Positions 35,127 through 55,089 of a stretch of DNA of 64,000 nt are shown here, piece by piece. The stretch is from a phage. The notes under the pieces were generated by a model. It made no database searches. It was not told the origin of the DNA and was given only the letters and a program-made list of their open reading frames with translations. The stretch is taken from NCBI GenBank assembly GCA_004257845.1, contig GCA_004257845.1_4800.1. One strand, given 5' to 3'. A program made the position numbers and the translations under genes. Every line of letters begins with the position of its first letter. The stretch's first letter is position 1.

Positions 35127-35545
35127 GACAATTCCTCTAAATACTTGATGATGTGATGGATGGACCCGCTCGCGGCGACCATAGCCAGAATCTCATGCTT
35201 AGTATATTCTTTTAATCGCAATGAAGGGTGAACTAAATAATAAGCCTTTTCAGAGTCCACCTTCAGCAACACGAATGACGAGAATTTCCAATCACTCCAA
35301 GAAGTCAAAAAGCTTTGTTGACCTTTCTCAAATGCGCTCTTGAAAGGAAGAGTGGTGGCCCTTGCAGGCCACGATTCAAAGAACTTCATTTCAAGCCAAA
35401 AGCCGCGCCCTTTCCGGTTGGTGCCGATTACGTCCGGCACACCATCACCCGTCATTGATTCGATTCTTTGAAGCTTCAAGATTGATTCTGAATGCTTCTT
35501 CAAAGGCACGAATATGTATTTCTGTTCACGGTTATTTGTTGCCAT
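35123..35545 (-). CDS. VRR-NUC domain nuclease
   Basis: GVPDV ... FWLEMK PD-(D/E)xK-like motif; typical partner of phage SNF2 helicases; start taken at internal Met (ORF extends to 35596). Confidence 0.45.
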   Translation of the reverse strand: MATNNREQKYIFVPLKKHSESILKLQRIESMTGDGVPDVIGTNRKGRGFWLEMKFFESWPARATTLPFKSAFEKGQQSFLTSWSDWKFSSFVLLKVDSEKAYYLVHPSLRLKEYTKHEILAMVAASGSIHHIIKYLEELS

Positions 35546-38429
35546 CTGGATACACCTGTTTGATAACGTCGACGATGAACATGTCAATGCCTTCAAGTTT
35601 GCGGCCTTTCATCAGGAAGAATGCGCCGTTCCCGACGTTCTCTGCAATGTATTTCCCGTATTTCTGGAACTTCTCTGGACGAATCCTGAAGCGCATTGGC
35701 GAGTCGGTCGAATCGTCCTTGCACATAAGGTCAATGAACTGAGTCTCAAGCTTGTTTCCATACTGGTCAAACTCTGCGTAGCGGCCATCAGCTTGAAGAC
35801 CCTTTTTAAGTTTGCCGTGCTTTGTATAAATGCCGCGCTCAAGACGTTTACGGATGCGTGTCGCTTCGTTCTCGTCAGCCAGCACTTTCTTGGTCAACTT
35901 GCCGATCACTATTGCACGCTCGTCATCGCCGACTTCCTTCATCTGGCGTATTGAAGCACCGGAAGTAACGCCAATCAGATAGGGGTCATTATATGCCCAT
36001 CCGAACTTTGTGTGCATCTCTGTAAGGTCGCCGTATTTGACTTCAGCATTGGCCAATGCATCCTTTTGCTTTTGCGTTAAGGTTCCGGCTTCACGTGCTT
36101 CGATATACTTCATCGCCTTCACCATGCCATATCCTTTTGCGTTCATGATGCCGCCGATTAGCTTTCCGTTAGCGATGGTCCAGTTCATTGAAGAGTGATC
36201 AGGGTCGATTGGCACATAATCCACGCCTTCCTTCGCAAGTTCACGTAATATCGCAATCGTCTGGTCTTCGTCCTTAGCAGCGCGTAAGCAAGCAGCGGCA
36301 AATTCCAACGGGTAGTGTCGCTTAAGCCACAAGGTCCAGTAGGTCACGACCGCGTATGATACGGAGTGTGACTTGTTAAAGCCCCATGACCCGAACGTCG
36401 CCATCGCTTGCCAAAGCTTTCTTGCATCCGCTTCCGGTACGCCGTTATTTATTGCTCCTGCAACGAAGTCTTCGCCAAGCTTGTTAAAGTATTCCTCACC
36501 CTTACGACCTGACATCGCCTTACGTACAGCGGATGTTTTCGCCCAGTCAAATGAACCAATCTCTTTGACCACGGCCATGATTTGCTCTTGGTAAAGAAAC
36601 ACGCCGTAAGTCTCTTTTAAGTACGGCTCAAGCTGCGGCACGTCGTACTCAATCGGCGCACGTCCTGCCGCGCGTTCAATGTATTTCTGGGCCATACCGG
36701 ACGACAACGGGCCAGGTCGGCCAAGTGCTGTCAGGTTATCGATTTTGTTAAAGTTATCAACGTGCACAAAGTTGGTTACTGAGCGTACAGCGTCGCCTTC
36801 AAACTGGAAGATGCCTGACATCTTGTTTTCGTTAAGGATGTCAAGGACGCTTTGGTCATCAAGCTTGATTCCGTACAGCGTTTCAGCATCTATCACGCCA
36901 GTATCAGAAATGATTCCGAGAGTACGAAGGCCCAGCGCATCAAGCTTCAAAAGGTTTAGGTATTCGCTGTCAGGCTTATCGATTTGCGCAATCCCTTCTG
37001 CAGTTACAGTACAGTAATCAGAGATTGGGTCATTACACACAATGATTCCCGCTGCGTGAACACCTGTGTGAGACGGGTGAATCTCAAGGTCACCCATGCA
37101 ACGCGCGGCGTCAGGATATTTCGCCACGAACTCTTGGCCCGTGGTCGTTGTTGCAAAGGTATCCTCCAGGCCGTGACCATAACGGGCGTCACCGGATGAG
37201 TATTCAAGCAGTGCGTTTTTAATGTTGGCTGTTTCGTGGTATCCAATGTTGAACTTCTTACCAACTTGAGCCATTACTGAGTTGGCCTTAAGCGTGTTGA
37301 TGTTGCCAAGCTTTGCAACGTTCATTTCGCCGTATTTCTCTTTAAGATAATCAAACACCATATAGCGTTTGGTATCTTCAAAGTCGATGTCGATGTCAGG
37401 AAGGTCGGCGCGGCTTACGTCGATGAATCGGGCAAACAGTAGCTTATACGGGATTGGGTCCACTTCCGTGATGCCGAGGCAATAGCAAACAAGTGAACCA
37501 GCCGATGAGCCGCGAGCAGGACCGACGAGCATTTTTGTTTTTGCGAATCGTACAAGGTCTGCTACCACCAGAAAGTATGAGTCGAAATCTTTCAGCTGAA
37601 TCTGGTGAATTTCTTCGTTGAAGCGGTCCTCGTATTCCTGAGTCCATTCTTTGATGTGACCTGCTTTGAGACGGTACTCCATGCCCTCACGCGCAAGCTT
37701 TACCATGTCACCAGCAAGGTGAATAATCGGTGCCTTACGCAATTTCAGGTCAAGTCCGACTATGCCGTTTGCTATGTCAACAGCATTGGCCGTTGCCTGA
37801 TTGAGCTCATCTTCAGTCAAGATGCCTTTAAGCTGTTTTCGCAAGTCTTCCGCGTCAACGATGCAATGCGGCTTCACCGTGTCGCGCACTTCCCAAGCAT
37901 AAGCAAAGTCAACGTGCTCAGGTGAAGGCATGTGGTTGTATCCGGTTAAAACCAGCGGCCTTCCACCACTACGATGAGCCAACACCTGGCGCTTTGCCAA
38001 AAGGAACGACGATGGGTTGACGTCTATATAGTCGTAGTCCTCTGGCCGCAGCAGTTCCACGGCACCGCCACAGAATTTAACGACGCCATCGAGCGCCCCG
38101 AACTCTGCACGGGTAAGACCACCACGCTGCGTTGCAAGTGTTGTAGCGTTGTAAAAAGATTTTAAGTCAAGGGCCAATATCCAAGCCTTCGGTTTGAATC
38201 CCTTTTTCGGGTCCGCATCAGGGTCGATGATTGGAATCTCCATTCCAAACATAGGATTAATATCATTTTTCTGGCATTCCTTTTCCCAGCGAACGTGACC
38301 CCATGTGTTGTTATCAACTAATGCCGCGACTTCGCAGCCCAACTCTTTGAGCCGTGCTATAATTTCAGGATGCCGTCCATAAACTTCTTTGAACGTGTAA
38401 CCGCTGCGAACTCTCAATTGTGGAAACAT
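35532..38429 (-). CDS. dnaE: DNA polymerase III alpha-like replicative polymerase (DnaE family, PHP domain)
   Basis: 965 aa; N-terminal PHP-like region; DnaE palm motif ...RADLPDIDIDFE...; length and organisation. Confidence 0.75.
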   Translation of the reverse strand: MFPQLRVRSGYTFKEVYGRHPEIIARLKELGCEVAALVDNNTWGHVRWEKECQKNDINPMFGMEIPIIDPDADPKKGFKPKAWILALDLKSFYNATTLATQRGGLTRAEFGALDGVVKFCGGAVELLRPEDYDYIDVNPSSFLLAKRQVLAHRSGGRPLVLTGYNHMPSPEHVDFAYAWEVRDTVKPHCIVDAEDLRKQLKGILTEDELNQATANAVDIANGIVGLDLKLRKAPIIHLAGDMVKLAREGMEYRLKAGHIKEWTQEYEDRFNEEIHQIQLKDFDSYFLVVADLVRFAKTKMLVGPARGSSAGSLVCYCLGITEVDPIPYKLLFARFIDVSRADLPDIDIDFEDTKRYMVFDYLKEKYGEMNVAKLGNINTLKANSVMAQVGKKFNIGYHETANIKNALLEYSSGDARYGHGLEDTFATTTTGQEFVAKYPDAARCMGDLEIHPSHTGVHAAGIIVCNDPISDYCTVTAEGIAQIDKPDSEYLNLLKLDALGLRTLGIISDTGVIDAETLYGIKLDDQSVLDILNENKMSGIFQFEGDAVRSVTNFVHVDNFNKIDNLTALGRPGPLSSGMAQKYIERAAGRAPIEYDVPQLEPYLKETYGVFLYQEQIMAVVKEIGSFDWAKTSAVRKAMSGRKGEEYFNKLGEDFVAGAINNGVPEADARKLWQAMATFGSWGFNKSHSVSYAVVTYWTLWLKRHYPLEFAAACLRAAKDEDQTIAILRELAKEGVDYVPIDPDHSSMNWTIANGKLIGGIMNAKGYGMVKAMKYIEAREAGTLTQKQKDALANAEVKYGDLTEMHTKFGWAYNDPYLIGVTSGASIRQMKEVGDDERAIVIGKLTKKVLADENEATRIRKRLERGIYTKHGKLKKGLQADGRYAEFDQYGNKLETQFIDLMCKDDSTDSPMRFRIRPEKFQKYGKYIAENVGNGAFFLMKGRKLEGIDMFIVDVIKQVYPDGNK

Positions 38430-38971
38430 TATTTACTCCAGATGTCATATACGCCAATTTGTTGGCAGACTTTGTGCAGTAATATTACGTCGTCTAATGC
38501 ACGGTGTTTCTGTTCATATTTTCCGAAATATAATTCATACAGCTCTTGAAGCTTAACTCTTCGGCCAAAAATAGGCAAGGTTTGCTCAACTGTACAAATG
38601 TTTATTTCTGGAAAATTAACATCATCAAGCGTAAGTCCTTCGCGCTGTAGTGCATAATCAAGAATGTTTTTATCGAACGCATGGTTGTGCGCGATAGTTG
38701 CATCAGTCTTCTTGAAGATTTCTTTTAGCTGCGGGACGAAATTGATGAACGGTGGATTGCACTCAAGGTCTTCATTTGTTAATCCGGTAATCTTTGTGAT
38801 AATTTCTTCAATCACGATTTCAGGATTAATTATGAATTCAAACGTTTCAAGAATCTCTTTGCCGTCTGTCAACAGACCTGCAAATTCAATAGGGCGCGGC
38901 TGCATCCCAAGCGGCGCTTTCGGGTGCACGGTCAATCCGGTTGTTTCGAAGTCATAAGGGAGAAATAACAC
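38429..38971 (-). CDS. DnaQ-like 3'-5' exonuclease (DEDDh)
   Basis: Exo motifs DFETTGL, AHNHAFD, HRALDDV; ATGA-coupled to polymerase gene. Confidence 0.7.
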   Translation of the reverse strand: MLFLPYDFETTGLTVHPKAPLGMQPRPIEFAGLLTDGKEILETFEFIINPEIVIEEIITKITGLTNEDLECNPPFINFVPQLKEIFKKTDATIAHNHAFDKNILDYALQREGLTLDDVNFPEINICTVEQTLPIFGRRVKLQELYELYFGKYEQKHRALDDVILLHKVCQQIGVYDIWSK

Positions 38972-39025
38972 ATTAGCCTCCTACAAAAAGGCCGCCCATT
39001 AGGACGGCCACAGATTCACGATTCG

Positions 39026-39577
39026 TTATACAGTGTACGGAGTACCGTCTTGATTCAAGCGCACGATAAACTTCAAATCAACGCCGATGATTTCACGCGT
39101 ATCAAAGATCACATAGTTGTAACGACGTTGACCAGCAATGTTCGGGTTGGTATGAGAGTCAGTTACAACTTCCTGTGCAACCTGAATGCCTTCTTCGCTA
39201 AAGAACTTACGCCATTCAGCAAGTTCAGCGGCAGTTACGTGCATACCAAGATGGCTAACCTGATTGTCATGCGCATCGATATATTCGATGTTTTCGTTAA
39301 TCCAGTTGCAGCCCATTGTGTAGTCAAGGATTTCAAGCTCAAGAGGCTTACCAGCGCCGCCATCAGTACCGTTGCCAGCCTGATAGTTGAAGCGCAAGTC
39401 AGCTTCATTGGTGCAATCGTCGCGACGACCTTTAAAGTCATCAGCTTCAAATACGCGACCAGTAGCAACAACATGATCATGGAACCATTCTGTCAGGCCG
39501 ATTTTAGCCAAGAAATCCTGTGCGCGCTGAGCATCTGGAATTGACAGGGCGATTTGTTCAATTTTAAAATGTGGCAT
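39026..39577 (-). CDS. VOC (glyoxalase/dioxygenase-like) family protein
   Basis: Two-module beta-alpha-beta-like sequence with conserved His/Glu positions (HDHV ... HLGMHV); weak. Confidence 0.3.
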   Translation of the reverse strand: MPHFKIEQIALSIPDAQRAQDFLAKIGLTEWFHDHVVATGRVFEADDFKGRRDDCTNEADLRFNYQAGNGTDGGAGKPLELEILDYTMGCNWINENIEYIDAHDNQVSHLGMHVTAAELAEWRKFFSEEGIQVAQEVVTDSHTNPNIAGQRRYNYVIFDTREIIGVDLKFIVRLNQDGTPYTV

Positions 39578-39673
39578 TTTGTTTCCTTAATTAAATATTA
39601 TTGATTAATTACTGTGTTGTCTTCGTCCTGTTTCTTTTCAGGAGCGGGTGTGACAACTTCAAATGTTCGTGAT

Positions 39674-40357
39674 TTATTTACCAAATGGAATATCAGTACC
39701 AGACATAAAGCGCCATGCGCCAGTAATTAAGATATGGCGAATGAAGTCAGCAATTACTTGCGGCTCAGTCTCCAATCCATTCATCAATGCCTTTTTCTGG
39801 TATTCAGCAGCGTATTCAGGAGTCCAGCCGCGAGTCGCGCAAACGGCATCTTCAATCTGTTTAGACATGCCAGTGCCGCGCAACTTGTTAGGACTAATAG
39901 AGAATACCGTGATGCCGTACTTAGGCGTAAGTTCGTGAGCCATCTGCTTGCTGATCATAAGCGCAGCAGCCTTGGATGCATTATAACACAAGCTGGACGT
40001 CATAGGAATATGCGCAGCGTTGGAAACGATGTTGATCACAAAGCCTTTGTTGTCGATAAGACTTTTCAGCGCAGCCTGAGTCGTGTTAACGAAAGAGAAT
40101 GCGTTGGTGTGCATAACGCGGTTAAACTCTTCATAGTTTACATCTTCAAACCAATTGTTAGAGTTGACACCAGCACAGTTGATCAAGCCTTCAACATCAT
40201 ATGGGCTTAAAATTTCTTTCATCTGTTTAGCATCGCGGACGTCATATCCGTATGCTGAATCGATGCCAAGCACGTTATGACCGTAAGCGCCAAGGGTGTC
40301 AAAAATAGATTTACCAAGACCGGAATTGGAACCTGTTACAACAATTACTTTTTTCAT
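39674..40357 (-). CDS. short-chain dehydrogenase/reductase (SDR)
   Basis: N-terminal VVTGSNSGLGKS (TGxxxGxG), NCAG, catalytic S ... YNASK. Confidence 0.65.
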   Translation of the reverse strand: MKKVIVVTGSNSGLGKSIFDTLGAYGHNVLGIDSAYGYDVRDAKQMKEILSPYDVEGLINCAGVNSNNWFEDVNYEEFNRVMHTNAFSFVNTTQAALKSLIDNKGFVINIVSNAAHIPMTSSLCYNASKAAALMISKQMAHELTPKYGITVFSISPNKLRGTGMSKQIEDAVCATRGWTPEYAAEYQKKALMNGLETEPQVIADFIRHILITGAWRFMSGTDIPFGK

Positions 40358-40422
40358 TTATTTATCCTTTTTGGACTTCGTTTCGATGAGGTAAATATAA
40401 CTCATCGAAACGCACAAGTAAA

Positions 40423-41295
40423 CTATTTATTGAAATTAATATTATGGGTGTTTACAAGACGTTCACACATGGCGCTATAAACACCATCGTCGTGTATTGA
40501 GTCTTCGTGCTTCAGGCCGCTGATTGCGAAGCGTGTAAGCTTGACAATCTTAAGCTCGAACAGATGCCACATGTGGTAGTCTTCCGGCGTTTTCAGCGTC
40601 ACGCCATTAGGGAACAACACCTGCATAACCTGACCTACCATCACAGCGTTATCGCCATAAACGGCATTGCGCTCACGGAAGGTCGCGGCCATCGCATCAA
40701 GAATATCGGCGGCAGTTGCCGGAGATTGTTCAACTTCCACAGCCTTAGTCTCTTCTTGCCCTGTTGCGCTTGGATCAATTGCTAATTGTTGCACCACTTC
40801 ACCTGCTTTGCAAAGATTAAATGTAAAAGCGATTTTATTTTGAGCAACGGAGTTATAATACAATGCTTCATCTTGCATCCGCGCGAGTACGTCTTGTCGG
40901 TCGTCGAATACATTGATGATTCGATAATCGCCGTGCCGCAAAGCGTGCGATAGCCATGCAGATTTCATAATAGTTGATGGACGTTTGTCGCCATAGTCTC
41001 TCATCTTGATTGTAAATTCATCAAAAGGGAAAACATTGTCCAGACGTTCAAAAGTCACTTGTCTGTATTTTTCTGGCCTTGCAGTCCAATATTCAACCGC
41101 CTCACCGCGAAGAGATGCCGACTCTACTGCTGATGCAATGTGAGGATAGAACTGATCATAACCAATACCGCTGTGATAGTCATCATAGTCTGACAACGGA
41201 CCTGCCACCTTGATGCGGTCTAAGCGCCAACGGTCATCAAACAGCGTTCCGTCAAGGTCGAATACGTTTAAGATTTCGCTGTTTTTAATGCTCAT
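40423..41295 (-). CDS. HAD-superfamily phosphatase fused to an unknown C-terminal domain
   Basis: Motif I VFDLDGTLFDD and motif IV-like VFDDRQDV; ~110-aa helical C-terminal extension. Confidence 0.5.
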   Translation of the reverse strand: MSIKNSEILNVFDLDGTLFDDRWRLDRIKVAGPLSDYDDYHSGIGYDQFYPHIASAVESASLRGEAVEYWTARPEKYRQVTFERLDNVFPFDEFTIKMRDYGDKRPSTIMKSAWLSHALRHGDYRIINVFDDRQDVLARMQDEALYYNSVAQNKIAFTFNLCKAGEVVQQLAIDPSATGQEETKAVEVEQSPATAADILDAMAATFRERNAVYGDNAVMVGQVMQVLFPNGVTLKTPEDYHMWHLFELKIVKLTRFAISGLKHEDSIHDDGVYSAMCERLVNTHNINFNK

Positions 41296-42095
41296 CCTTT
41301 TGATACTCCATCTTTAGCAACTGGATTGTTGGTGATTGGCATTGCACTCCAAAACTGGATGCGCAACTCTTCTTGCTGTGCCGTGGTATCCATCCAATCA
41401 CGATACCAAGGGCAATGGGCTTTGCCATGACGAGGAAACGCGCACTTACCCATACCGATGCACTGAGGCTGTAGTAAAGGATTGGCCCACGGGTGCACCT
41501 TAAGGACTTCCGCAACCATTGCACGGAATACTTCTTGATACTCGCCTTGAGTACGCGTGCACAAGCGGTTAGAGGCCATTTGTTGCAGAGTGCGCAAGTT
41601 GAACTTTGCCATGATATGCGTTTGCATATTAGAAGGCAACACGGCACGTGCATCTTGAATCTCTGCGCCAGCCGCGCGAAGTTCTTGGTATAGGGCGTCA
41701 ATGGTTGCCATTGCATCATCCCATTTCTCTGCCAGTTCAGCAGCCTTCTCGTCATGACGAGTCCATCCCTTTGGATCATCCTCTGGGTAAGTAAATTTGG
41801 CAGGACGAATCGCATCAAATGCTGACGACTCCTGAGCGCGGCTTGTGCGTTCTTGATATGCACCTGTGCGTGTGCGCACCATCTGATGAGTCATATTCTT
41901 TGATACATCAGTGATGTCAAAGATATAGTCCACAAAGTCAAAAGGCGACTTGATTGTATCAAGCATGTAGCGCCAGTGCTCTTGCTTCTCTGATTCTGTC
42001 ATCTCAGAGACTGGCTTACCAGTCATGCGCGTGTTCTTTGTTTCCAGCAAAAGGTCAAGTGCATCTTGGGTGTATCGAATTAATTCAACTTTCAT
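41292..42095 (-). CDS. divergent ThyX-like (flavin-dependent thymidylate synthase-like) protein
   Basis: Segment FVDYIFDITDV ... HQMVRTRTGAYQERTSRA recalled as paralleling the ThyX RHR-x7-S-x-R-Y region but with RTR, T and A at signature positions; ATGA-coupled to HAD gene. Confidence 0.4.
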   Translation of the reverse strand: MKVELIRYTQDALDLLLETKNTRMTGKPVSEMTESEKQEHWRYMLDTIKSPFDFVDYIFDITDVSKNMTHQMVRTRTGAYQERTSRAQESSAFDAIRPAKFTYPEDDPKGWTRHDEKAAELAEKWDDAMATIDALYQELRAAGAEIQDARAVLPSNMQTHIMAKFNLRTLQQMASNRLCTRTQGEYQEVFRAMVAEVLKVHPWANPLLQPQCIGMGKCAFPRHGKAHCPWYRDWMDTTAQQEELRIQFWSAMPITNNPVAKDGVSKG

Positions 42096-42108
42096 TTTAA
42101 TTATCCTA

Positions 42109-42555
42109 TTAACGGTAATTCACTAGTTGCTGATCACCAGAGAAGGTGCAATGATAAACGAATTGTGCGTTATAAAGCAACTGAAAACTTTTCTTTGGTT
42201 CATTATTAGAACTCATTGATGTAAAGATTTCTGCACCAGAACGGTTTTCACCAATCAGGTTAATAAAGCCGCCAGTTGAACGAGGCTGAACGAAAGTGAA
42301 ACGCTGCATCCACGGAGTCCGGTTGGCACCTTTTCCAGTGAATCCCTGAATCTGAATATTCAGACCTTCTTGCTCGTTCACACCGATGTAAGTGGTAATT
42401 GTTGCGCCAGTCGTCGCTGCGGTCTTGCCGTCCATCGCTTCGCAATCGTAAACAGCGATTGAATCGGAAGTACGGACAGCGGCTTCAGTCGCTTCCATAT
42501 ACATGGTTCCGAGAATAGCAGTCGCGGCAAGCGCGATTCCAGTGATGCGTTTCAT
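42109..42555 (-). CDS. secreted protein (148 aa) with signal peptide
   Basis: MKRITGIALAATAILGTMYMEA signal-like N-terminus. Confidence 0.45.
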   Translation of the reverse strand: MKRITGIALAATAILGTMYMEATEAAVRTSDSIAVYDCEAMDGKTAATTGATITTYIGVNEQEGLNIQIQGFTGKGANRTPWMQRFTFVQPRSTGGFINLIGENRSGAEIFTSMSSNNEPKKSFQLLYNAQFVYHCTFSGDQQLVNYR

Positions 42556-42620
42556 TTTCGTTTCCTCTATGAGTTCTGCTTCAATGATTAAAGTATACGC
42601 CCATTGAAGCAGAAAGCAAA

Positions 42621-43616
42621 TTATTTATTAGCAATATAAGCAAATTTTTGATAGTTATTTGCTTTGATGAGTTTTTCAACTTCAGCAAGGTCATGAGCGA
42701 CGTCATCAAGCAAAATGTTTCGCCAAGTAGCGAATCGACCGACACTAAATACGTTCAAATCCATAGTCAACTGGAGCAGTAAGGCGTGGCGCAAGTCTTT
42801 CGGAATGTCGACAATTTTGCCATACTTCTGGTCAACCTTTTCAACTTCTTCCAAAGAGATGTCATTCCATGAAAGACCAAAAGCGGTAAGAACTTCATCC
42901 ACTTCTGCACGCAGCTTCATGTCGCGATAACGGGTAATGCCGCCAGCGGCTTCAACTGCTGCCGCGCTGACGCTTACCAATGGAATTGTTTCAATGATCA
43001 GCGTGTCACCAGTGATTGATGCGCGGTAAGTCCTTACAGAATAGTCAGGGAAGTAAATTGTTTGATAAAGTTCACACTTGCGCTTAATCTTAAAACGATA
43101 AACGCGAATATTTGCCTTATCAAACGAGAAGTCGAGTTTTTGATCAATACCAGCAAGCTTCATCATGACTGGCAGCGGCGATGTGTTGATGATTGGCGTC
43201 TCGCTATAGCCGCAAAGCGTGTCGACCGGAGTATTAAAGAATATACGGTCACCCAGTTTATCGACAAGTTGATCATAAAAGTCATCCGGCGCTATGTAGC
43301 GCGTAGCAGTTTGAAGCTTCATGATTGAGCGGCTGCCAAACTGGTTGGTGACTTTCATAGAGTACATGTTGGCAAGGTTAATCGGGCAGTGGTCGTGATA
43401 GTAGTTGCCGCGAAAATACACAGCCTTATCGACTGTCACGGCCTTAAAGGGGATTCCGGTAATACGGCTTACTTCTTCGCCGCGAAATCGTAGCAGCGCC
43501 TTGTGCTGCGCGACGCGTTCGCCTGCTTCGTACACAATAGAGTTCGGAAAGTGACAAGCCGTGATAAGTCCTGCCAGTCCGCCGCCGATAATCATTACAG
43601 GTTGTTTCATGTTCAT
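42621..43616 (-). CDS. FAD/NAD(P)-binding oxidoreductase
   Basis: N-terminal dinucleotide-binding motif VMIIGGGLAGLITA. Confidence 0.5.
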   Translation of the reverse strand: MNMKQPVMIIGGGLAGLITACHFPNSIVYEAGERVAQHKALLRFRGEEVSRITGIPFKAVTVDKAVYFRGNYYHDHCPINLANMYSMKVTNQFGSRSIMKLQTATRYIAPDDFYDQLVDKLGDRIFFNTPVDTLCGYSETPIINTSPLPVMMKLAGIDQKLDFSFDKANIRVYRFKIKRKCELYQTIYFPDYSVRTYRASITGDTLIIETIPLVSVSAAAVEAAGGITRYRDMKLRAEVDEVLTAFGLSWNDISLEEVEKVDQKYGKIVDIPKDLRHALLLQLTMDLNVFSVGRFATWRNILLDDVAHDLAEVEKLIKANNYQKFAYIANK

Positions 43617-43749
43617 TTGTCCTTTGTGGGTGATATGATAAGTATAATAGCTAAATTATCTTACAGCAACAAGTCATTTTATTTAGTACAGACGAAAAAA
43701 GACCCACAACTGGTGTGGGTCAATTACCGCTACATAACCGTCCTAGAGG

Positions 43750-44598
43750 TTATTCTGCTTGATCGTCGTGCTCTTCGGCATCTGCTTCGGATTCAACATC
43801 GATGAACTCGATGTGGCCCATCTCTTCCAGTTTGCTCAGGTAAGAGCGAACTGAAGCGCCAAACAGCTGATCTTTAACTTTTTCACCCAGCTCGTCGATA
43901 GACTGCGGCTGACCGATTTCACCTTCTTTGATCGCAGCCAGTACGCGACCACGGGTGGAATGTTCTTGCGGCTGGCTCAGGCCGTTTCCGGTGTAAACAA
44001 AGTGAGTTGCTTTAGCGCGACGCTGACCATTAGCTTTCTTGGCGGCTTTACGCTCTGCAATCGCTTTGCGACGCTCTTCAGCTTCTTTCTTACGCTGTTC
44101 TTTCTGTTGTTCTGCAGCTTCTTTCGCCGCAATCTTAGCAGCTTCACGCTCTGCCTTGCGTTTCGCTTTCGCTTCTTCTTTAGCCTTTTCTTTTTCGGCT
44201 TTCGCTTCTGCACGGGCCTGATCACGTTCAGCCTTTTTCGCCGCAGCTTGTTCAGCTTTCAGGCGCTTGGCTTCTTCTTTCGCCTTTGCCTTTTCAATTT
44301 CTTTAGCGGCTTTAGCGGCTTCACGCTCTGCCTTCTTAGCAGCAGCCTTTTCAGCACGCTCTGCAGCCTTCTTAGCGGCTTCTTCAGCACGCTTCTGAGC
44401 CTTCTCGTCAGCAGCCTGCTTGCGTTTCAGCGCAGCTTCTTCACGCTTGGCTTGTTTTTCCTGCTCACGCTTCTGGCGTTTTTCTTCGGCTTCTTTCTTT
44501 TTAGCCAGGCGTTTTTCTTCAGCCACGCGACGACGTTCTGCTGCAGCTGCTTGTTTTTCTTCTTTAGATAATACTTTGATTGCTTCGGCCATATTCAC
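43750..44598 (-). CDS. protein with ~200-aa Lys/Glu/Ala-rich low-complexity helical region and acidic C-terminal tail
   Basis: Continuous 282-aa ORF; repeats of EEKR/AKKA/EAK over ~210 aa; the repetitive DNA generates several shadow ORFs. Confidence 0.5.
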   Translation of the reverse strand: MNMAEAIKVLSKEEKQAAAAERRRVAEEKRLAKKKEAEEKRQKREQEKQAKREEAALKRKQAADEKAQKRAEEAAKKAAERAEKAAAKKAEREAAKAAKEIEKAKAKEEAKRLKAEQAAAKKAERDQARAEAKAEKEKAKEEAKAKRKAEREAAKIAAKEAAEQQKEQRKKEAEERRKAIAERKAAKKANGQRRAKATHFVYTGNGLSQPQEHSTRGRVLAAIKEGEIGQPQSIDELGEKVKDQLFGASVRSYLSKLEEMGHIEFIDVESEADAEEHDDQAE

Positions 44599-46422: not shown

Positions 46423-47505
46423 ATGGCTAGTTTAAGAGAAGAAGCAAAAATAATTGAAGAGTTTTTAACAGAACTCCAAAGAGGCATCCCAGAAGATGAG
46501 CGCGTCATGACGGTGTTTGCTCCTGAAGCAACGGTGCAGACCGACGAGCGCGGCAAGAAGATCAACAGCAGCTTCTGGCCTAAGCCTTGGAAGTTGGGCA
46601 AGCCGCTCATGCAGCACCAAAACGGCTATGCATGCATCAGTTCAATGCGTAAGTCTCCCAACCCAAAGACGGGTGAGATGCGATACTGGCGTACAGAGTC
46701 GGCCTTTGGTCACGGCATGGCGATGATGGTCGACGACATCGGTCACGGTAAAGGTTCCAAAGGCGATTTAGATTTGGAATTCTTTTTTGAGCGACTGAAG
46801 CCGACTGTCATCGTCGAGACTTCACCGAACAACCACCAGCTTTGGTACTTCTTTAAAGAACCGATTGACCATCTTATTCAGTTCAAAGCGTTCCTTGGGT
46901 CTTTCGTTAACATGGTACTCAAGAAGGGCGGCGACAACACGATTAAAGACGTAACGCGCGTGGGTCGTGTTCCTGGGTGCATCAACAACAAGCGTGTGAC
47001 TCACGACGGCCCCTATAAATATGTCGATGAGAACGGCGACCCGTTCCGCTGCCGACTTGTCCATGCAGACTACTCATTGCGCTACACCATCGAAGACATT
47101 TGTCAGGCATTTGGCTTTCACGTCGTCATGCCACAAAATCGTGAGATTCAAATTGACGTCGATGAATACAAGTATGATGCTGTTTGGTATAAAATAGCCC
47201 AGCAGATTCTATCGCGCAACAAGATGGGTGAAGGGTCTGATGGCGACGTCATCGAGAATATGTCAGGCAAGTGCCGCATAATCTGTCCTTGGGGTGAAGA
47301 ACACACCAACGGCGACCCGTATGGCGCTTACTTTCGCGGCCCTATCCCTGGTGCAGAACATGAGTTTGTGTTCGGTTGCGCCCACGACTGTCACCGGAAA
47401 GGGGAAGGCAAGAAAGGTTGGACTGCTTTTGTTGAAGCAATCGTCATGCCTTATATTGAGAATCAACTTGACATGATAAATCGTCGTGCAGGTGGCATAA
47501 AATAG
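46423..47505 (+). CDS. putative primase (prim-pol/RepB'-like) with C-terminal Cys/His zinc-binding motif
   Basis: Acidic MVDDIGHGKG and SPNNHQLWYFF motifs; CPWGEEH ... CAHDCH cluster; directly upstream of VirE-like NTPase. Confidence 0.4.
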   Translation: MASLREEAKIIEEFLTELQRGIPEDERVMTVFAPEATVQTDERGKKINSSFWPKPWKLGKPLMQHQNGYACISSMRKSPNPKTGEMRYWRTESAFGHGMAMMVDDIGHGKGSKGDLDLEFFFERLKPTVIVETSPNNHQLWYFFKEPIDHLIQFKAFLGSFVNMVLKKGGDNTIKDVTRVGRVPGCINNKRVTHDGPYKYVDENGDPFRCRLVHADYSLRYTIEDICQAFGFHVVMPQNREIQIDVDEYKYDAVWYKIAQQILSRNKMGEGSDGDVIENMSGKCRIICPWGEEHTNGDPYGAYFRGPIPGAEHEFVFGCAHDCHRKGEGKKGWTAFVEAIVMPYIENQLDMINRRAGGIK

Positions 47506-47563
47506 TTTGCTTTTATTTTCATAGCAACTATAATCATTTTATGAACTGAAGCAGAGGTGATTT

Positions 47564-47710
47564 ATGCAAAGCGAAGAATTGAAAATCGAGGTTGAATGTC
47601 TGTTAAAGTCGTTAGAACCTAAACCAGCAGAGCTTCCGACCCTTCAAGGAGTCATGGCTCACCATCAAGCGGCTGCGGCCAAACACTACTCTGAATTTGT
47701 TAAGGAATAA
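47564..47710 (+). CDS. small ORF (48 aa)
   Basis: RBS AGAGGTGA then ATG; not in ORF track (below 60 aa). Confidence 0.3.
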   Translation: MQSEELKIEVECLLKSLEPKPAELPTLQGVMAHHQAAAAKHYSEFVKE

Positions 47711-47712
47711 AG

Positions 47713-48003
47713 ATGAACGAACCAAAAATGATGACCGTTGAAGAAGCGCAAAAGCTTCGTGTTGAAAACGAGCTTAAGCTTGTCAACCAGATTCTTCCTT
47801 TGTTTGCAGGCTACGCAGTGGAGGAAGTTGTTGGGGCAATCCTTAACGTATCCACGCATGTCGCTATGAATCTTCAGGCCGAGCGATTCAACACACTGCT
47901 GACTATTAAAGACCTTACCGTCAGCGCAACGTTCACTGTTGAGCCAGTCAATTTTGACGAAGCTTCAGCCGCGATTCAACAGCAAAGAGATCAAGAGGTG
48001 TAG
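47713..48003 (+). CDS. hypothetical early protein
   Basis: ORF. Confidence 0.4.
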   Translation: MNEPKMMTVEEAQKLRVENELKLVNQILPLFAGYAVEEVVGAILNVSTHVAMNLQAERFNTLLTIKDLTVSATFTVEPVNFDEASAAIQQQRDQEV

Positions 48004-48004
48004 C

Positions 48005-48268
48005 ATGGGTGCTTTCCGTAACGAGTTCATCTGGAACGTTACCAGCAATCTCTCGACTTGTCCTAACTGTGCGAGCGATGTTATCAAGGTGCGGCAGCAT
48101 CGCAACGCGGAGAAGGGTGCATGGGAAGATGGCGACCTTGTAGAGTGCCAGTGCTGCTCTCATGAAGGTGTTGTTGAGCTTCAAGCTGGTGAAGGTTGCC
48201 CACCAGCAGAGCGCACAGCACGCGTTGAATGGGATGCAACAGACTCCATTGGTGATCCTCAACAGTAA
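48005..48268 (+). CDS. small Cys-rich zinc-ribbon-like protein
   Basis: CPNC ... CQCC motif pairs; start at ATG 48005. Confidence 0.4.
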   Translation: MGAFRNEFIWNVTSNLSTCPNCASDVIKVRQHRNAEKGAWEDGDLVECQCCSHEGVVELQAGEGCPPAERTARVEWDATDSIGDPQQ

Positions 48269-48286
48269 ATTTAGGTATAGATACTT

Positions 48287-48391
48287 ATGAAAGCCGTAAA
48301 GAAATACACATTAATCATTTCCCTTGTCATCATCCTGGGGCTATTATATGTATTGGATATGGCATATTATTTGGCAGGGGTGAGTGGATGA
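48287..48391 (+). CDS. small hydrophobic peptide (34 aa, one predicted TM helix)
   Basis: MKAVKKYTLIISLVIILGLLYVLDMAYYLAGVSG; stop overlaps next start (ATGA). Confidence 0.3.
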   Translation: MKAVKKYTLIISLVIILGLLYVLDMAYYLAGVSG

Positions 48392-48678
48392 ATATTGTAA
48401 TTCTTTATGGTGAAAATATCAGCGATGACGACATCGAAGTTGCCGTTGATGTTTACGGTATCGATGAGGTGAAACGTGTTGAAGAAATTAGTGGCGCAAA
48501 TCTCAATGAGATTGTCAAAGAGGCTGGCTGTCCTTCGGAAGAGATTCTGGTGGTTACTAACGATGACCTGTCTTCTATGGATCATTTGCGCCGCATCTTC
48601 ACCGATTGCCAATACCTTCATGCTGTTCAATCAGTAAACAAATTGAGAAAGGCATACGCCAACCAATTTCCTTGCTGA
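48388..48678 (+). CDS. hypothetical early protein
   Basis: ORF. Confidence 0.4.
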   Translation: MNIVILYGENISDDDIEVAVDVYGIDEVKRVEEISGANLNEIVKEAGCPSEEILVVTNDDLSSMDHLRRIFTDCQYLHAVQSVNKLRKAYANQFPC

Positions 48679-48728
48679 TAGTTCACCAGTTATATTGCTT
48701 TAAATTGAGTTTTACTATATTAATATAC

Positions 48729-48748
48729 AACGCCAGATTTCTGGCGTT
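48729..48748 (+). terminator. intrinsic terminator
   Basis: Hairpin AACGCCAGATTTCTGGCGTT followed by TATTTA. Confidence 0.5.
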
Positions 48749-48814
48749 TATTTACCGCACCCTGAAAGGATATATCCATGCAACAATATAACAAAGCCGT
48801 ATCAGGAGGATTAA

Positions 48815-50485
48815 ATGTCAATTAATAATGACAATCTTCCAGAGGATACAGGTGATGAATTTGGTGCAATCTTTGACGAAATTCAAGATGCAGGTGTTTC
48901 GGAAGAAATGCAGGCAGCAGAGCAGCAAGGCACCAGAGCTAAAATCAGCCTTCAACACAAAGCTGTTGAAAAAGATTCAGAGCGCATGGAATGCTACGGT
49001 GAAGAAGACTTGGTTGAAAGAGCACGCTTGCTCGCCTCACTTCAGGTAATCAAGTTCCCTCACTACAAGCCTACCAAAGATGACTTCGTTCTACAGGCAG
49101 ACCGGACGAGTGACATGAACCGTTATGCGGTTTTCGACGCGTTGTTTGATAAGGGAAGTGGCATTGTTCCATTCCCTCACAAAGATACTTTTCGTGGGCG
49201 CTTAGTCGACCATCGCGGCGAAACATTCACTGACCGTACCTTGGAAGTCACAGAGATAGTCGCTGCTGTCGACGCAGCAGGGTTGTCCAACCCAAACTCA
49301 CGTCAGGTCGCTCAATCCTATAAGGAATGGGCCATGCGTTATCAGCGTGACGACCTGATGGACTTCTTCTACAAGAAGCTGCCTGAATGGGACGGTACTG
49401 CGCGCATCGAGAAATACCTTATCGAGCTATTCCGACCGTTCGATACAGAGTTAAACCGACAAATCGGTGTGTATTTTTGGCTATCGCTCTACAACCGCCT
49501 GACCAACCCTGGCTGTCAAGCGCCAATCTCCATCGCGCTAATCGGCGGCCAGAACGCAGGGAAGAGTTATTTTAGCAAGCTGCTTTGCGAAGCTATTATG
49601 AACGACCGCCACGCAACACCGATTCCGTTGAACTTAGCCGCGCAAAACTTCAACCCGTTCTTGCGAGCTATTACGGGTCGCTCAATTATCGCGAACGTTG
49701 GCGAGATGACAGGCTTTAAAAAGGCCGACATCGAAAACATGAAAGCATTCCTGACTAAGACGGAAGATGACCTGGACTTCAAATTTGAAGATACGCAGGT
49801 TAAACCACGCCAGTGGATTGCCATCATGGACGGCAACGAATACGCAGGCATGCAGCGTGACGATACGGGCAACCGTCGTGTTTACCCTATCTTTGTTGGC
49901 CAACTTGCTGACAAGGACGGGCAACCGAACTGGTCTAAAGACTTCCAAGCTGACCTTTCCACTTTGAAAGAAGATGTTTGGCAGCTTATGGCTGAGTGCG
50001 CTGCGTGGATGGAGAAGCACGGCGAAGCAGGCTATAACGCGTTTGTTGGTGAAACATCTCGCATGCTTACTGAGTTCAGTAAAAACGAAATGGAACGTGC
50101 ACGCGGCGTTATCCGTGATGAGATGGTCGACAACGACCTTGTTGAAGTCGTCATCACCGCGCCTTATGACCGACATCACAGCGGACGCTGGCACATCACA
50201 AGTGGTGCTATTGCTATGGGATTCAGAGCGAAGTGCGGCAAGTCGCCTTTCTCTCGTACCCTTGCGCCGCACATGTCGAAGCTTGGCTTTGAGCCTGCGA
50301 CCTATCGCAACCAGCGCGGCTACTTTACGCCGCTGATTAAGAATGAAGCAGGGGAATACATTTCTGATCTGATGACCATCTTAGCGTATCTTATCCGCGA
50401 TGAGTCTGACCCTGAAGATATTGAATTCTTGAAGAAGGTTATTGAGCGTAAACGTTCTTTGGGAAGAGATAAGGATGAATTCTGA
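48815..50485 (+). CDS. VirE-like P-loop NTPase (primase-associated helicase)
   Basis: Walker A LIGGQNAGKSYFSKLL; Walker B-like WIAIMDG; 556 aa. Confidence 0.6.
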   Translation: MSINNDNLPEDTGDEFGAIFDEIQDAGVSEEMQAAEQQGTRAKISLQHKAVEKDSERMECYGEEDLVERARLLASLQVIKFPHYKPTKDDFVLQADRTSDMNRYAVFDALFDKGSGIVPFPHKDTFRGRLVDHRGETFTDRTLEVTEIVAAVDAAGLSNPNSRQVAQSYKEWAMRYQRDDLMDFFYKKLPEWDGTARIEKYLIELFRPFDTELNRQIGVYFWLSLYNRLTNPGCQAPISIALIGGQNAGKSYFSKLLCEAIMNDRHATPIPLNLAAQNFNPFLRAITGRSIIANVGEMTGFKKADIENMKAFLTKTEDDLDFKFEDTQVKPRQWIAIMDGNEYAGMQRDDTGNRRVYPIFVGQLADKDGQPNWSKDFQADLSTLKEDVWQLMAECAAWMEKHGEAGYNAFVGETSRMLTEFSKNEMERARGVIRDEMVDNDLVEVVITAPYDRHHSGRWHITSGAIAMGFRAKCGKSPFSRTLAPHMSKLGFEPATYRNQRGYFTPLIKNEAGEYISDLMTILAYLIRDESDPEDIEFLKKVIERKRSLGRDKDEF

Positions 50486-51132: not shown

Positions 51133-51171
51133 TCATCATCAAAATATTTGCTTTTCTGACGAGGTGATATT

Positions 51172-51846: not shown

Positions 51847-51853
51847 GTTGAAG

Positions 51854-52227: not shown

Positions 52228-52229
52228 TT

Positions 52230-53620: not shown

Positions 53621-53638
53621 ATATCAAAAAGGTGATTT

Positions 53639-53833: not shown

Positions 53834-53837
53834 ATAT

Positions 53838-55088: not shown

Positions 55089-55089
55089 T

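Follow-up and report, generated by a model that had tools for sequence, protein, structure and literature searches.

Why should a phage carry a cluster of small-molecule enzyme genes directly upstream of its DNA polymerase gene? A reading of the sequence alone had proposed an undescribed nucleotide or DNA-modification pathway. In the analysis reported here, five enzyme genes of this cluster emerge as the best candidate machinery for thymine decoration in these phages and their Pseudomonas relatives, and we see about an even chance that they form a thymidine-hypermodification pathway of sugar or polyol type for the phage's own DNA.

Gene layout and genomic surroundings

The window, i.e. the whole stretch of 64,000 nucleotides analysed, belongs to a Wifcevirus, an E. 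coli myovirus, with 96% identity to BASEL phage Bas101. Six ORFs, all on the minus strand, lie exactly at the positions given by the sequence-only reading for six co-oriented genes; they are confirmed as real, and all are annotated in 29-30 Wifcevirus genomes. A single ATGA coupling is present, as an overlap of the ThyX stop and HAD start; the remaining junctions are gaps of 13-96 nt. Terminator-like hairpins with an 8 bp stem and a T-run flank the cluster on both sides, one upstream between a K/E/A-rich gene and the FADl gene (43701..43721, minus strand), the other, with 7 GC pairs, directly 3′ of the VOC gene (38990..39009, minus strand). Genes for an epsilon-type 3′-5′ exonuclease (38429-38971) and a DnaE-type polymerase (35532-38429), both on the minus strand, are the module's invariable downstream neighbours. 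The MazG-like pyrophosphatase (30594-31217) and ATP-dependent DNA ligase (29629-30591) genes said to lie nearby are indeed found on the same strand, about 8 kb off, and are conserved in Pbunavirus too.

A conserved five-gene module

Of the six genes, five (FADl, ThyX-like, HAD-X, SDR and VOC) are a deeply conserved module. Conservation was scored in the interval between FADl and the DnaE polymerase in 52 IMG/VR viral contigs carrying both: ThyX-like, X and exonuclease occur in 52/52, HAD in 51/52, and SDR and VOC, always found together, in 36/52 each. Gene order is constant across these loci, with the module directly upstream of the exonuclease and polymerase genes, and it is also kept in metagenomic phages of 41 kb and 62 kb, despite identities as low as 28-62%. 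FADl, ThyX-like and HAD-X also lie within 6 kb in a Rhizobium phage of 207 kb that belongs to a different family. Among isolate phages, the ThyX-like clade counts 357 records and FADl 359-362, with identical genus counts.

A gene order shared inside a single broad lineage of phages can stem from vertical descent without functional coupling, and vertical inheritance could likewise give this order if the genes served ordinary auxiliary nucleotide metabolism. According to this alternative, which we hold to be rather unlikely, the ThyX-like protein is a divergent, functional thymidylate synthase raising dTMP for a very fast-replicating phage, the HAD protein a nucleotidase or 3′-phosphatase engaged in salvage or repair beside the ligase, and FADl, SDR and VOC are unrelated housekeeping proteins. 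However, dTMP synthesis offers no rationale for the strict co-distribution with the orphan FADl and with HAD-X.

The sixth gene (42109..42555, minus strand) encodes a 148-aa protein with a signal-peptide-like N-terminus and occupies a variable slot. All of its 29 records are from Wifcevirus, no homologue was found outside this genus, and only 3/52 related loci carry it. It is a genus-specific insert outside the conserved module, and its earlier assignment to the pathway does not hold.

A ThyX-like protein with altered catalytic positions

The non-canonical ThyX-family protein (267 aa; 41292..42095, minus strand; Thy1 E=1.2e-30) shares the Thy1 fold with canonical ThyX of T. maritima (TM0449) and M. 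tuberculosis (Pfam E=1e-30), and scores 83.1 bits, under the TIGR02170 equivalog cut-off of 87.9 bits. It retains Gln75, Arg78, Arg80, Arg90, Arg147 and Arg174, which bind and polarise dUMP in canonical ThyX, and may therefore be a plain working, divergent thymidylate synthase. The nucleotide-metabolism alternative draws on this domain match and on the intact set of substrate-binding arginines, as well as on the name thymidylate synthase given to the protein in every database and the frequent occurrence of ThyX in phages with unmodified DNA; that ThyX needs no DHFR-type partner speaks against it.

The catalytic positions also argue against a thymidylate synthase. The substitutions noted in the sequence-only reading were correct, the window protein having the variant motif RTRTGAYQERTSRA (41835-41876) where T. 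maritima ThyX has RHRIASYNELSGRY. Canonical RHR…S…S.RY is replaced across the phage clade by R[T/S/N]R…[A/S]…[T/S].R[V/A]. The His53 position is Ile in 74/74 orthologues; among the 71-74 orthologues compared, Arg74 is replaced by His or Gln in all, His79 by Thr, Ser or Asn, and Tyr91 by Val, Ala or Thr, with Tyr in none and the RHR…S.RY motif in no clade member. Control phage ThyX proteins keep RHR…SQRY. Tyr91 and Ser88 have been described as strictly conserved in ThyX, and in the T. maritima enzyme Y91A slows the methylene-transfer step >100-fold (PMC8316439). The clade systematically lacks positions that genuine ThyX keeps without exception and that matter for its catalysis, and the clade-wide loss of Tyr91 and His53 counts against dTMP synthesis. 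Unlike canonical ThyX, the clade is always accompanied by FADl and HAD-X. The window protein also has four conserved cysteines (C179, C212, C218 and C228; 41412-41567), and an extra four-cysteine C-terminal element is present in half of the clade.

Partner proteins of the module

FADl (331 aa; 42621..43616, minus strand) is a two-domain flavoprotein and a sequence orphan, with no detectable similarity to Pfam families or PDB sequences. Its GxGxxG motif (43569-43586) and flavoenzyme fold agree with the previous call of an FAD-binding oxidoreductase; a C-terminal GRFATWRNILLDD motif lies at 42702-42740. The family comprises 1919 homologues, with 362 phage records. The nearest fold is that of UDP-galactopyranose mutase (Glf/UGM), followed by protoporphyrinogen oxidase, amine oxidases and PHBH-type monooxygenases. 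Eukaryotic UGMs are the closest structural matches, FADl being 130-180 residues shorter; PHBH-type monooxygenases match almost as well as UGM, so that the fold does not tell whether FADl is a mutase, an oxidase or a hydroxylase.

The HAD-X fusion gene (40423-41295, minus strand; 290 aa) encodes a Pnkp-type HAD phosphatase domain in its N-terminal half only (40771..41295; HAD_PNKP E=5.4e-8), followed by domain X (40456..40710), a four-helix bundle divergently related to DUF6378, in keeping with the HAD phosphatase with an extra domain recognised earlier. With the T4 Pnkp phosphatase domain (HAD_PNKP, PF25109) it shares the DxDxT motif I (DLDGT, 41245-41259) and the DDR motif IV (FDDRQD, 40891-40908). 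Whereas T4 polynucleotide kinase-phosphatase has a kinase domain and is without X, the phage protein has no kinase domain, which makes its database name 'polynucleotide kinase/phosphorylase' a misnomer, and X always accompanies the HAD domain, fused to it or as a separate partner. Domain X, in which R, Y, N, H, K, R, H, D, S and D are invariant, is a separate gene in 15/51 related loci; HAD_PNKP is matched by 68/89 X-fusion proteins.

The SDR (227 aa; 39674..40357, minus strand) is a classical short-chain dehydrogenase/reductase, as had been recognised (adh_short E=2.6e-31), with intact TGSNSGLG, NCAG and YNASK motifs. Its best matches are generic ketoreductases of the FabG, glucose dehydrogenase and 2,3-dihydro-2,3-dihydroxybenzoate dehydrogenase types, at scores far under every family cut-off. 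No pteridine reductase is among the best 25 matches listed, and the suggested FolM/PTR1 affinity thus finds no specific link. The VOC (glyoxalase/dioxygenase)-fold protein (183 aa; 39026..39577, minus strand) has a weak match of its own (E=0.004), but 13/20 orthologues match Glyoxalase_4 (best 1.7e-5), which upholds the original call.

Such proteins might instead form a unit that supports the replisome or ThyX with cofactors or redox power, without DNA modification, in which the SDR is a pteridine or folate reductase, FADl is a reductase linked to flavin or NAD(P)H that feeds the ThyX-like protein, and VOC and HAD process a cofactor precursor. We give this little credence. ThyX chemistry does need reduced flavin and a one-carbon donor, polymerase genes always adjoin the module, and the SDR and FADl folds are generic redox folds; yet ThyX itself restores tetrahydrofolate and uses NADPH to reduce its own flavin, the SDR matches point to ketoreductases, the folds nearest FADl are not those of flavin reductases, SDR and VOC are dispensable in 1/3 of lineages, and the restriction data would be left unexplained.

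Hypermodified thymidine in Pbunavirus

Virion DNA of F8 and 14-1, from the sister genus Pbunavirus, contains hypermodified thymidine whose nucleoside masses, 362 and 390, were interpreted as those of sugar-alcohol and aldopentose derivatives and which replaces approximately 1/4 of T, in the TG motif; none of the genes responsible were identified in that study (PMC12191111). In the two genomes, 26.7-27.0% of T lies in TpG, and arithmetically the masses equal 5-hmdU plus tetritol or pentose minus water. By analogy, the Wifcevirus product may be a counterpart of this TpG-specific nucleoside.

Pfam scans of ten F8, 14-1 and PB1 ORFs around the module revealed no canonical modification enzyme. Neither the cluster proteins nor 46 other non-structural ORFs include a ThyA-type hydroxymethylase, 5-hmdU DNA kinase, aGPT-Pplase, TET/JBP, glycosyltransferase or methyltransferase, and no canonical hypermodification enzyme is annotated in Bas101. 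That relatives are chemically modified without other candidate enzymes again weighs against ordinary nucleotide metabolism. SDR and VOC are absent from Pbunavirus modules and hence not required for modification as such, so that a single six-step pathway is not tenable.

It is very improbable that the module acts on a target other than DNA thymine, such as a sugar of the host envelope or uridine in tRNA or RNA. In favour of such a target, RNA provides the best-known cases of flavin-dependent chemistry at C5 of uridine (TrmFO, MnmEG, MnmC), sugar-nucleotide pathways typically employ UGM-like, SDR and HAD proteins, and the signal peptide of the 148-aa protein would hint at a cell-surface role. 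However, that protein is missing from 49/52 related modules, the module is welded to DNA replication genes, its HAD is mostly of the Pnkp (nucleic-acid or nucleotide 3′-phosphatase) type, and the modification in relatives is in DNA, not RNA.

Restriction resistance and TpG

Wifceviruses have been published as restriction-resistant “without any known protection mechanism”. The EcoCFT_II site, inferred from site counts and not taken from the source text, was deduced to be CACAG/CTGTG, the sole 5-mer whose counts fit Bas101 (87) and Bas99 (92). This resisted site holds two TpG, whereas AGACC/GGTCT, the site of EcoP1, which kills Wifceviruses, holds none; the deduction and the contrast, like the flank and palindrome counts below, are new to this analysis. 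EcoRI and EcoRV sites lie mostly within TGAATTCA/TGATATCA contexts in three Wifcevirus genomes. In the window, TpG-forming flanks occur at 22/30 EcoRI and 6/6 EcoRV sites against a baseline of 31% (p=1.8e-6 and 8e-4), scattered across unrelated genes. Among hexamer palindromes, 15/48 TG-free but 0/16 TG-containing ones are missing from the window; lambda shows part of the same contrast. F8 DNA is cut by EcoRI. Protection at TG alone is insufficient to explain EcoRI and EcoRV resistance, for which the flank argument is indirect. Taken together, the resistance pattern points to TpG.

Under the nucleotide-metabolism alternative, resistance would come from site avoidance, a protein inhibitor encoded by one of the numerous small early genes, or fast replication together with the ligase, and the extreme palindrome avoidance of the genome is a protection strategy by itself. 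Against this, EOP is ~1 despite 30-38 counted EcoRI and 87-92 CACAG sites, and the EcoCFT_II/EcoP1 contrast and flank bias call for a change in the DNA that is specific to sequence context. Thymidine hypermodification, if true, would account for restriction enzymes failing against Wifceviruses.

A proposed hypermodification pathway

An undescribed modification pathway is now the best-supported reading, stripped of the secreted protein, the FolM/PTR1 link and the six-step unit, because of the conserved five-gene module, the residue losses of the ThyX-like protein, the absence of canonical modification genes, Pbunavirus hypermodified thymidine, and Wifcevirus restriction resistance with its TpG pattern. 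We infer each chemical step as follows. The ThyX-like flavoenzyme would still bind the uracil ring and activate C5, as the arginines responsible are retained. With His53 and Tyr91 lost, folate stacking and completion of methylene transfer and reduction would be abolished, so that it may deliver a reactive 5-methylene, 5-hydroxymethyl or larger aldehyde-derived adduct rather than dTMP. FADl, with its UGM/amine-oxidase fold, could work on either the C5 side chain or the sugar, and the HAD phosphatase, together with X as its obligatory partner, would dephosphorylate an intermediate that is a nucleotide or a sugar phosphate adduct. In the long module version only, SDR and VOC may modify the sugar further, through reduction of a keto group or through epimerisation; the 148-aa protein would be unrelated cargo.

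To our knowledge, ThyX acts on mononucleotides only. TpG-specific, partial replacement would imply a sequence-specific step on DNA; no recognisable DNA-binding or base-flipping domain occurs in the module proteins, which counts against the proposed pathway. There are chemical precedents in its favour: the ThyX flavin is known to accept free aldehyde (PMC8316439), and elsewhere an FAD oxidoreductase acts on the DNA thymine side chain, with nucleophiles capturing the exocyclic methylene (PMC8989533).

Comparison with known systems

Base J (glucosyl-hydroxymethyluracil) and the glucosyl- or arabinosyl-hydroxymethylcytosine of T-even phages are likewise sugar-bearing C5-methyl pyrimidines that block nucleases; they arise by Fe/2-oxoglutarate or ThyA-type hydroxymethylation and dedicated glycosyltransferases, domains not found here. 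The 5-hmdU-derived pathways of M6, ViI, PaMx11, SP10 and PhiW-14 (Lee et al. 2018/2021; PMC8989533) employ a ThyA-family dUMP hydroxymethylase, a P-loop 5-hmdU DNA kinase, an aGPT-Pplase transferase and PLP or radical-SAM enzymes, likewise not found here. A ThyX-family protein stands in this module in contrast to their ThyA-family enzyme, and the appended group is an amino-acid derivative in those pathways, a sugar or sugar alcohol in the Pbunavirus relatives. The outcome is nevertheless likely the same, namely that some of the thymidines, selected by sequence, bear a bulky substituent at the C5 methyl which protects against restriction, and in the 5-hmdU pathways, too, a flavoprotein can participate and a C5 exocyclic-methylene intermediate is the chemical hub (PMC8989533).

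Organisation and conservation of the module

The region between positions 39026 and 43616 of the window shares 93-96% DNA identity with 29 Wifcevirus genomes (E. coli/Shigella myoviruses of ~68 kb), among which Bas101, a phage of the BASEL collection, is the best match. All six ORFs proposed by the sequence-only reading are present where it had placed them, on the minus strand, and are annotated as genes in related Wifcevirus records. They encode a flavoprotein (FADl, 331 aa, 42621-43616), a 148-aa protein (42109-42555), a ThyX-like protein (267 aa, 41292-42095), a HAD phosphatase with a C-terminal domain X (HAD-X, 290 aa, 40423-41295), an SDR (227 aa, 39674-40357) and a VOC-like protein (VOC, 183 aa, 39026-39577). 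The stop codon of the ThyX-like gene overlaps the start codon of the HAD gene (ATGA), and on the coding strand of the cluster a pair of strong terminator-like hairpins (43721-43701 and 39009-38990) encloses exactly the six genes.

IMG/VR was scanned with a FADl profile, and the 80 returned loci were searched using the window's own proteins together with divergent orthologues. Fifty-two loci contain both FADl and a DnaE polymerase, and the interval between them holds the ThyX-like protein, X and an exonuclease in every case (52/52 each), HAD in 51/52, and SDR and VOC in 36/52 each (together in 35). Gene order is fixed: FADl, ThyX-like, HAD, X, then SDR and VOC where present, exonuclease and polymerase. 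The cluster is a conserved module except for the 148-aa gene. The product of the latter resembles a signal peptide at its N-terminus and matches no family, and the gene is restricted to 29 Wifcevirus records; with only 3 of the 52 module loci having it, all of them Wifceviruses, this secreted protein can no longer be counted as a member of the pathway, as had been proposed. Synteny inside one lineage is weak evidence for functional coupling. The module is found more widely: FADl has 1919 homologues, nearly all of them from contigs of phage size, and 362 records of isolate phages contain it, 292 of them of the Pseudomonas Pbunavirus type (the sister genus) and others including phages of Serratia, Xanthomonas, Pantoea and Rhizobium. 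Among isolate phages the ThyX clade is found in 357 records (≥80% coverage) and FADl in 359-362, with equal genus counts, and more distant canonical phage ThyX genes are found without FADl. A short form of the module, without SDR and VOC, is present in the Pbunaviruses PB1, F8 and 14-1 and in one Salmonella relative, and the long form is that of Serratia Myosmarvirus and of numerous metagenomic phages. In a Rhizobium phage of 207 kb, which belongs to another family, FADl, the ThyX-like protein and an HAD-X fusion are encoded inside 6 kb.

Several further features of these genomes were recorded. In a 41-kb metagenomic phage, a gene for Pyr_excise, a pyrimidine-dimer DNA glycosylase of the T4 endonuclease V type, separates the module's ThyX-like gene from its HAD gene (5164-5526 in sequence L010, 3290-3652 in L011). 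Directly upstream of FADl in PB1-like lineages is the gene of a protein which in the window has 282 aa (43750-44598, minus strand) and combines a long Lys/Glu/Ala-rich low-complexity region with a conserved C-terminal domain of ~80 aa, 50-59% identical to Pbunavirus ORF66 and to its Serratia and Salmonella counterparts; it may bind DNA. Two other conserved proteins on the minus strand, matching Pam3_Gp34 (31791-32651, E=1.8e-85) and DUF7307, a Pam3 gp33-like family (32711-33268, E=2.6e-37), sit between the spanin and helicase genes and are common to Pbunavirus (ORF51/ORF52) and the 41-kb metagenomic phage. A PADLOC search gave 0 matches. Database names of module genes are often misleading (PQ850631, EU716414, NC_070967, OQ831730 and others): the “polynucleotide kinase/phosphorylase” is a phosphatase without a kinase domain, and FADl is recorded as “polysaccharide deacetylase”, “polyamine oxidase” or “oxidoreductase”.

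A ThyX-like protein with an altered signature

The ThyX-like protein matches Pfam PF02511 (Thy1) with E=1.2e-30 (107 bits, cut-off 24.8), and its residues 42-204 align to T. maritima ThyX structures. It scores below the equivalog threshold of NCBIfam TIGR02170 (83.1 bits, cut-off 87.9). The ThyX signature RHRxxSxxxxSxRY, which includes Ser88 and Tyr91 (T. maritima numbering), is absent from the window protein, which has RTRTGAYQERTSRA instead. The substitutions named in the sequence-only reading are thus correct for the window protein, and they extend to the whole clade of 71-74 orthologues: position 79 (His) is T, S or N; position 88 is T, S or A, most commonly Thr; position 91 is V, A or T and never Tyr; and Arg74 is replaced by His or Gln. 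His53, the residue that stacks on folate in T. maritima ThyX, is Ile in 74/74 orthologues. The residues that bind and activate dUMP (Gln75, Arg78, Arg80, Arg90, Arg147 and Arg174) are invariant when the clade is aligned with T. maritima ThyX. The canonical RHR…SQRY is present in two control ThyX proteins, one encoded by a Clostridium phage and the other by a phage of Desulfovibrio. Ser88 and Tyr91 are strictly conserved and have a catalytic role in ThyX, the flavin of which also accepts a free aldehyde (formaldehyde) directly (PMC8316439).

The window protein further carries a C-terminal add-on with a conserved four-cysteine element (C179, C212, C218 and C228; RLC…C-x5-C-x9-C) spanning residues 177-228 (41412-41567, minus strand), to which canonical ThyX has nothing similar. 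Half of the clade (26/52 loci) has this element, a possible metal or Fe-S site, as does the ThyX of Gordonia phage Lambo; it is missing from the Rhizobium subclade and that of the 41-kb phage. Compared with ThyX, then, the protein shares the fold but departs from it in both signature and equivalog score.

The other proteins of the module

The fusion of an HAD domain to an extra domain, proposed from the sequence, was borne out. The first ~175 of the 290 residues match HAD_PNKP (E=5.4e-8), with motif I (DxDxT) as DLDGT at aa 13 and motif IV (DD) in FDDRQD at aa 130; the phosphatase domain alone matches, and a P-loop kinase domain is absent from the protein. The remaining ~100 residues form domain X, the most conserved part of the module (55-72% identity across otherwise distant phages), for which 2063 cluster representatives were found at E≤1e-3. 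Its predicted model (pLDDT 92.6) is a four-helix bundle, for which no specific structural relative was found. The invariant positions (R, Y, N, H, K, R, H, D, S, D) carry polar residues, and this points to a site and not to a scaffold. Among 89 longer relatives of X, HAD_PNKP was found in 68 and a match to DUF6378 in 11 (best 3.1e-5), so that X appears to be a divergent DUF6378 domain recurrently paired with a Pnkp-type phosphatase; with the DUF6378 profile itself the window domain gave 0 matches and ORF57 of F8 an E-value of 0.022. HAD and X are fused in 36 loci and encoded by separate genes in 15. The X gene of the Rhizobium phage (gp205), annotated as a phosphoheptose isomerase, was considered as a fusion with an SIS domain, but alignment showed its N-terminus to be another HAD domain (DFDGV), and the protein is an HAD-X fusion; an argument for sugar-phosphate chemistry resting on the SIS reading was therefore dropped.

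FADl has a fold resembling UDP-galactopyranose mutase (UGM), and searches of Pfam and PDB sequences gave no match to it even at E≤10, the GLF-domain family included. The SDR was correctly named, with adh_short at E=2.6e-31 and intact TGSNSGLG (aa 8), NCAG (aa 60) and YNASK (aa 125) motifs, corresponding to the TGxxxGxG, NNAG-type and Ser-Tyr-Lys elements of classical SDRs. Its suggested kinship to FolM/PTR1-type pteridine reductases did not hold up: the best 25 NCBIfam matches listed are generic ketoreductases, all far under their cut-offs, with no pteridine reductase among them. The VOC protein of the window matches weakly (E=0.004, under the cut-off), and 13 of 20 orthologues match Glyoxalase_4 independently (best 1.7e-5). 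A profile search of the PDB with VOC returned no VOC structure, and sequence and profile searches of PDB sequences with FADl, X and VOC gave nothing useful.

Thymidine modification in Pbunavirus

Virion DNA of the Pbunaviruses F8 and 14-1 is left uncut by every tested enzyme with TG in its site, and contains a novel thymidine-derived nucleoside of mass 362 (a sugar-alcohol derivative) or 390 (a cyclic aldopentose derivative), which takes the place of roughly a quarter of T; as Yee et al. stress, these phages have no known modification genes (PMC12191111). No gene assignment for this modification was found in the literature searched, later papers included. Thymines followed by G (TpG) make up 26.7-27.0% of all thymines in F8 and 14-1, and the reported quarter therefore equals all TpG. 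Arithmetically, the two masses correspond to 5-hmdU plus a tetritol or a pentose minus water, and C-C-linked isomers fit equally.

Around the Pbunavirus module, Pfam searches of ten ORFs revealed no enzyme domain outside the module itself. In the window, Pfam scans of the six cluster proteins and 46 other non-structural ORFs gave no match to a ThyA-family dUMP hydroxymethylase, TET/JBP, P-loop 5-hmdU DNA kinase, aGPT-Pplase, glycosyltransferase or methyltransferase; the only families found among the 46 were primase, VapE, ligase, endolysin and Pam3-like, and the curated Bas101 annotation likewise has none of these modification enzymes.

F8 and 14-1 have different thymidine adducts, and HAD-X is the module enzyme that diverges most between them (80% identity). 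ORF70 (17894-19090 in F8, 17997-19301 in 14-1, 7179-8231 in PB1) is hypervariable among Pbunaviruses, the F8 protein being 56% identical to that of 14-1 and 34% to that of PB1, compared to 92-100% for neighbouring genes. It was considered as a specificity determinant and rejected, having only weak zinc-finger (CxxCxGxG) and coiled-coil matches, no enzyme domain and no Wifcevirus homologue.

Restriction resistance and TpG signatures in Wifcevirus

No restriction-digest or nucleoside data on Wifcevirus DNA were found in the literature. Wifceviruses were reported by Humolli et al. to be resistant to almost every restriction system “without any known genome protection mechanism”, the exception being EcoP1_I; EcoCFT_II has as many sites as EcoP1_I, and this split between resistance and sensitivity was flagged as unexplained. 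In their raw data, efficiency of plating is about 1 on EcoCFT_I, EcoRV and EcoCFT_II and 0.3-0.9 on EcoRI, with no plaques on EcoP1_I. From the published site counts we deduced the site of the type III system EcoCFT_II as CACAG/CTGTG, the unique match to the 87 and 92 sites of Bas101 and Bas99, respectively; published counts for the controls AGACC, GAATTC and GATATC were reproduced exactly. CTGTG contains two TpG, whereas the EcoP1 site AGACC/GGTCT contains 0, and the contrast between the two systems is what a TpG-directed modification of thymine predicts.

The EcoRI and EcoRV sites themselves contain no TpG, so protection at TG within the site should fail at both and cannot explain this resistance. 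This led to an analysis of flanking bases. In the window, 22/30 EcoRI flanks form a TpG, against a baseline of 31% (p=1.8e-6), as do all 6/6 EcoRV flanks (p=8e-4); for the half-site control, GAATT without a following C, the figure is 37.5% (Fisher p=4.6e-4). Fourteen of the 15 EcoRI sites (6306, 6685, 6816, 7507, 15154, 32310, 34497, 38834, 45212, 46180, 46777, 50423, 50477, 50755 and 57350) are flanked by T on the 5′ side or A on the 3′ side, and the 8 with both read TGAATTCA; all three EcoRV sites (11165, 19959 and 25879) read TGATATCA. These sites lie dispersed over unrelated genes. Bas101 and Bas99 repeat the bias, which is absent in lambda and F8/14-1. Furthermore, 15 of 48 hexamer palindromes without TG have no copy at all in the 64-kb window, against an expected 10-18 apiece (among them GGATCC, GGTACC, GCTAGC, GGGCCC, AGATCT, TCTAGA, CCTAGG, CGATCG and CCCGGG), compared to 0/16 with TG (Fisher p=0.014). 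Lambda has a milder ratio between the two classes and only two absences; the contrast is thus partly generic, and weight is therefore placed on all-or-none absence together with flank bias rather than on the ratio alone. We infer, short of proof, that sites which TpG cannot shield have been purged from Wifcevirus genomes.

The chief rival explanation is that the module serves ordinary nucleotide supply and that restriction resistance comes from elsewhere. The ThyX-like protein, with its invariant dUMP-binding residues, may still act as a thymidylate synthase; on the other side stand the altered signature and the TpG patterns around restriction sites, and we regard this explanation as rather unlikely.

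Proposed function of the module

We propose that the module is thymidine-hypermodification machinery for phage DNA, a proposal in which our confidence is evenly balanced. The ThyX-like protein would activate C5 but leave the normal reduction unfinished, FADl would act on a sugar or side chain, HAD-X would strip phosphate from a phosphorylated intermediate, and sugar tailoring in the long form would fall to SDR and VOC; both are absent from F8 and 14-1, the DNA of which is modified. No DNA-recognition element accounting for TpG specificity is evident in the module. As precedents, there are FAD enzymes whose substrate is a thymine side chain in DNA, and nucleophiles that trap an exocyclic methylene (PMC8989533).

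It is tempting to speculate further that the ThyX-like protein and FADl represent a new form of flavin-N5 covalent catalysis joining a sugar C-C to C5 of deoxyuridine, although we consider this a long shot. UGM forms a flavin-N5 adduct with galactose, and ThyX is able to form one with free formaldehyde. Here a sugar aldehyde would be held as a flavin-N5 iminium or carbinolamine in place of the one-carbon unit, moved to C5 of deoxyuridine and then reduced, giving C-C-linked 5-(1-deoxyalditol-1-yl)uracils, while the HAD-X pair would take phosphate off the sugar. With a pentose as donor, the nucleoside would have a mass of 362 and be isomeric with “thymidine plus tetritol”, and this mass alone cannot separate the C-C-linked isomer from an ether-linked 5-hmdU derivative. 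Such a reaction would constitute new enzymology of DNA-base hypermodification, needing neither 5-hmdU nor a glycosyltransferase.

A looser analogue of the module may exist in Gordonia and Mycobacterium phages. In Gordonia phage Lambo, the region 46993-57333 encodes DnaE and MazG together with a GxGxxG oxidoreductase, an HAD protein, an X-like protein, a FabG-like SDR and a ThyX of the RQR type, which shares the cysteine motif of the window protein. Statistically solid similarity to the module is confined to SDR, ThyX and polymerase; hhalign comparisons of the FADl and X profiles with Lambo gp67 and gp70 are weak (probability 16-20%), which leaves the link with only its shared motifs, an SDR of 31% identity and the variant ThyX. 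An analogous set near DnaE polymerase and MazG was noted in actinobacteriophage clusters DV, D and EF (Lambo; Xenia2 table, PMC11385102), comprising a GxGxxG oxidoreductase ending in GRYGEW…D, an HAD hydrolase, a methyltransferase, an RQR-type ThyX, a FabG-like SDR 31% identical to that of the window and a protein whose motifs resemble those of X (RKNADYGD…).

Returning to the module as hypermodification machinery, it is a testable candidate for filling two gaps, namely the genes behind the TpG modification of Pbunavirus and the restriction resistance of Wifcevirus. If confirmed, it would provide a route to thymidine hypermodification from a ThyX-family enzyme and a second flavoprotein, without the kinase and transferase of known pathways, in well over a thousand phage lineages and possibly in actinobacteriophages too. 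It would also supply a genomic marker predicting modified DNA in therapeutic phages, Pbunaviruses being widely used in therapy, with relevance to host range, END-type nucleases, sequencing or synthetic rebooting, and would correct the widespread names “thymidylate synthase”, “polynucleotide kinase”, “polyamine oxidase” and “polysaccharide deacetylase”. Its enzymology for phage thymidine hypermodification is probably new: compared with the known 5-hmdU-based systems the outcome would be alike, but at the level of genes the module differs from them in every character by which membership is recognised.
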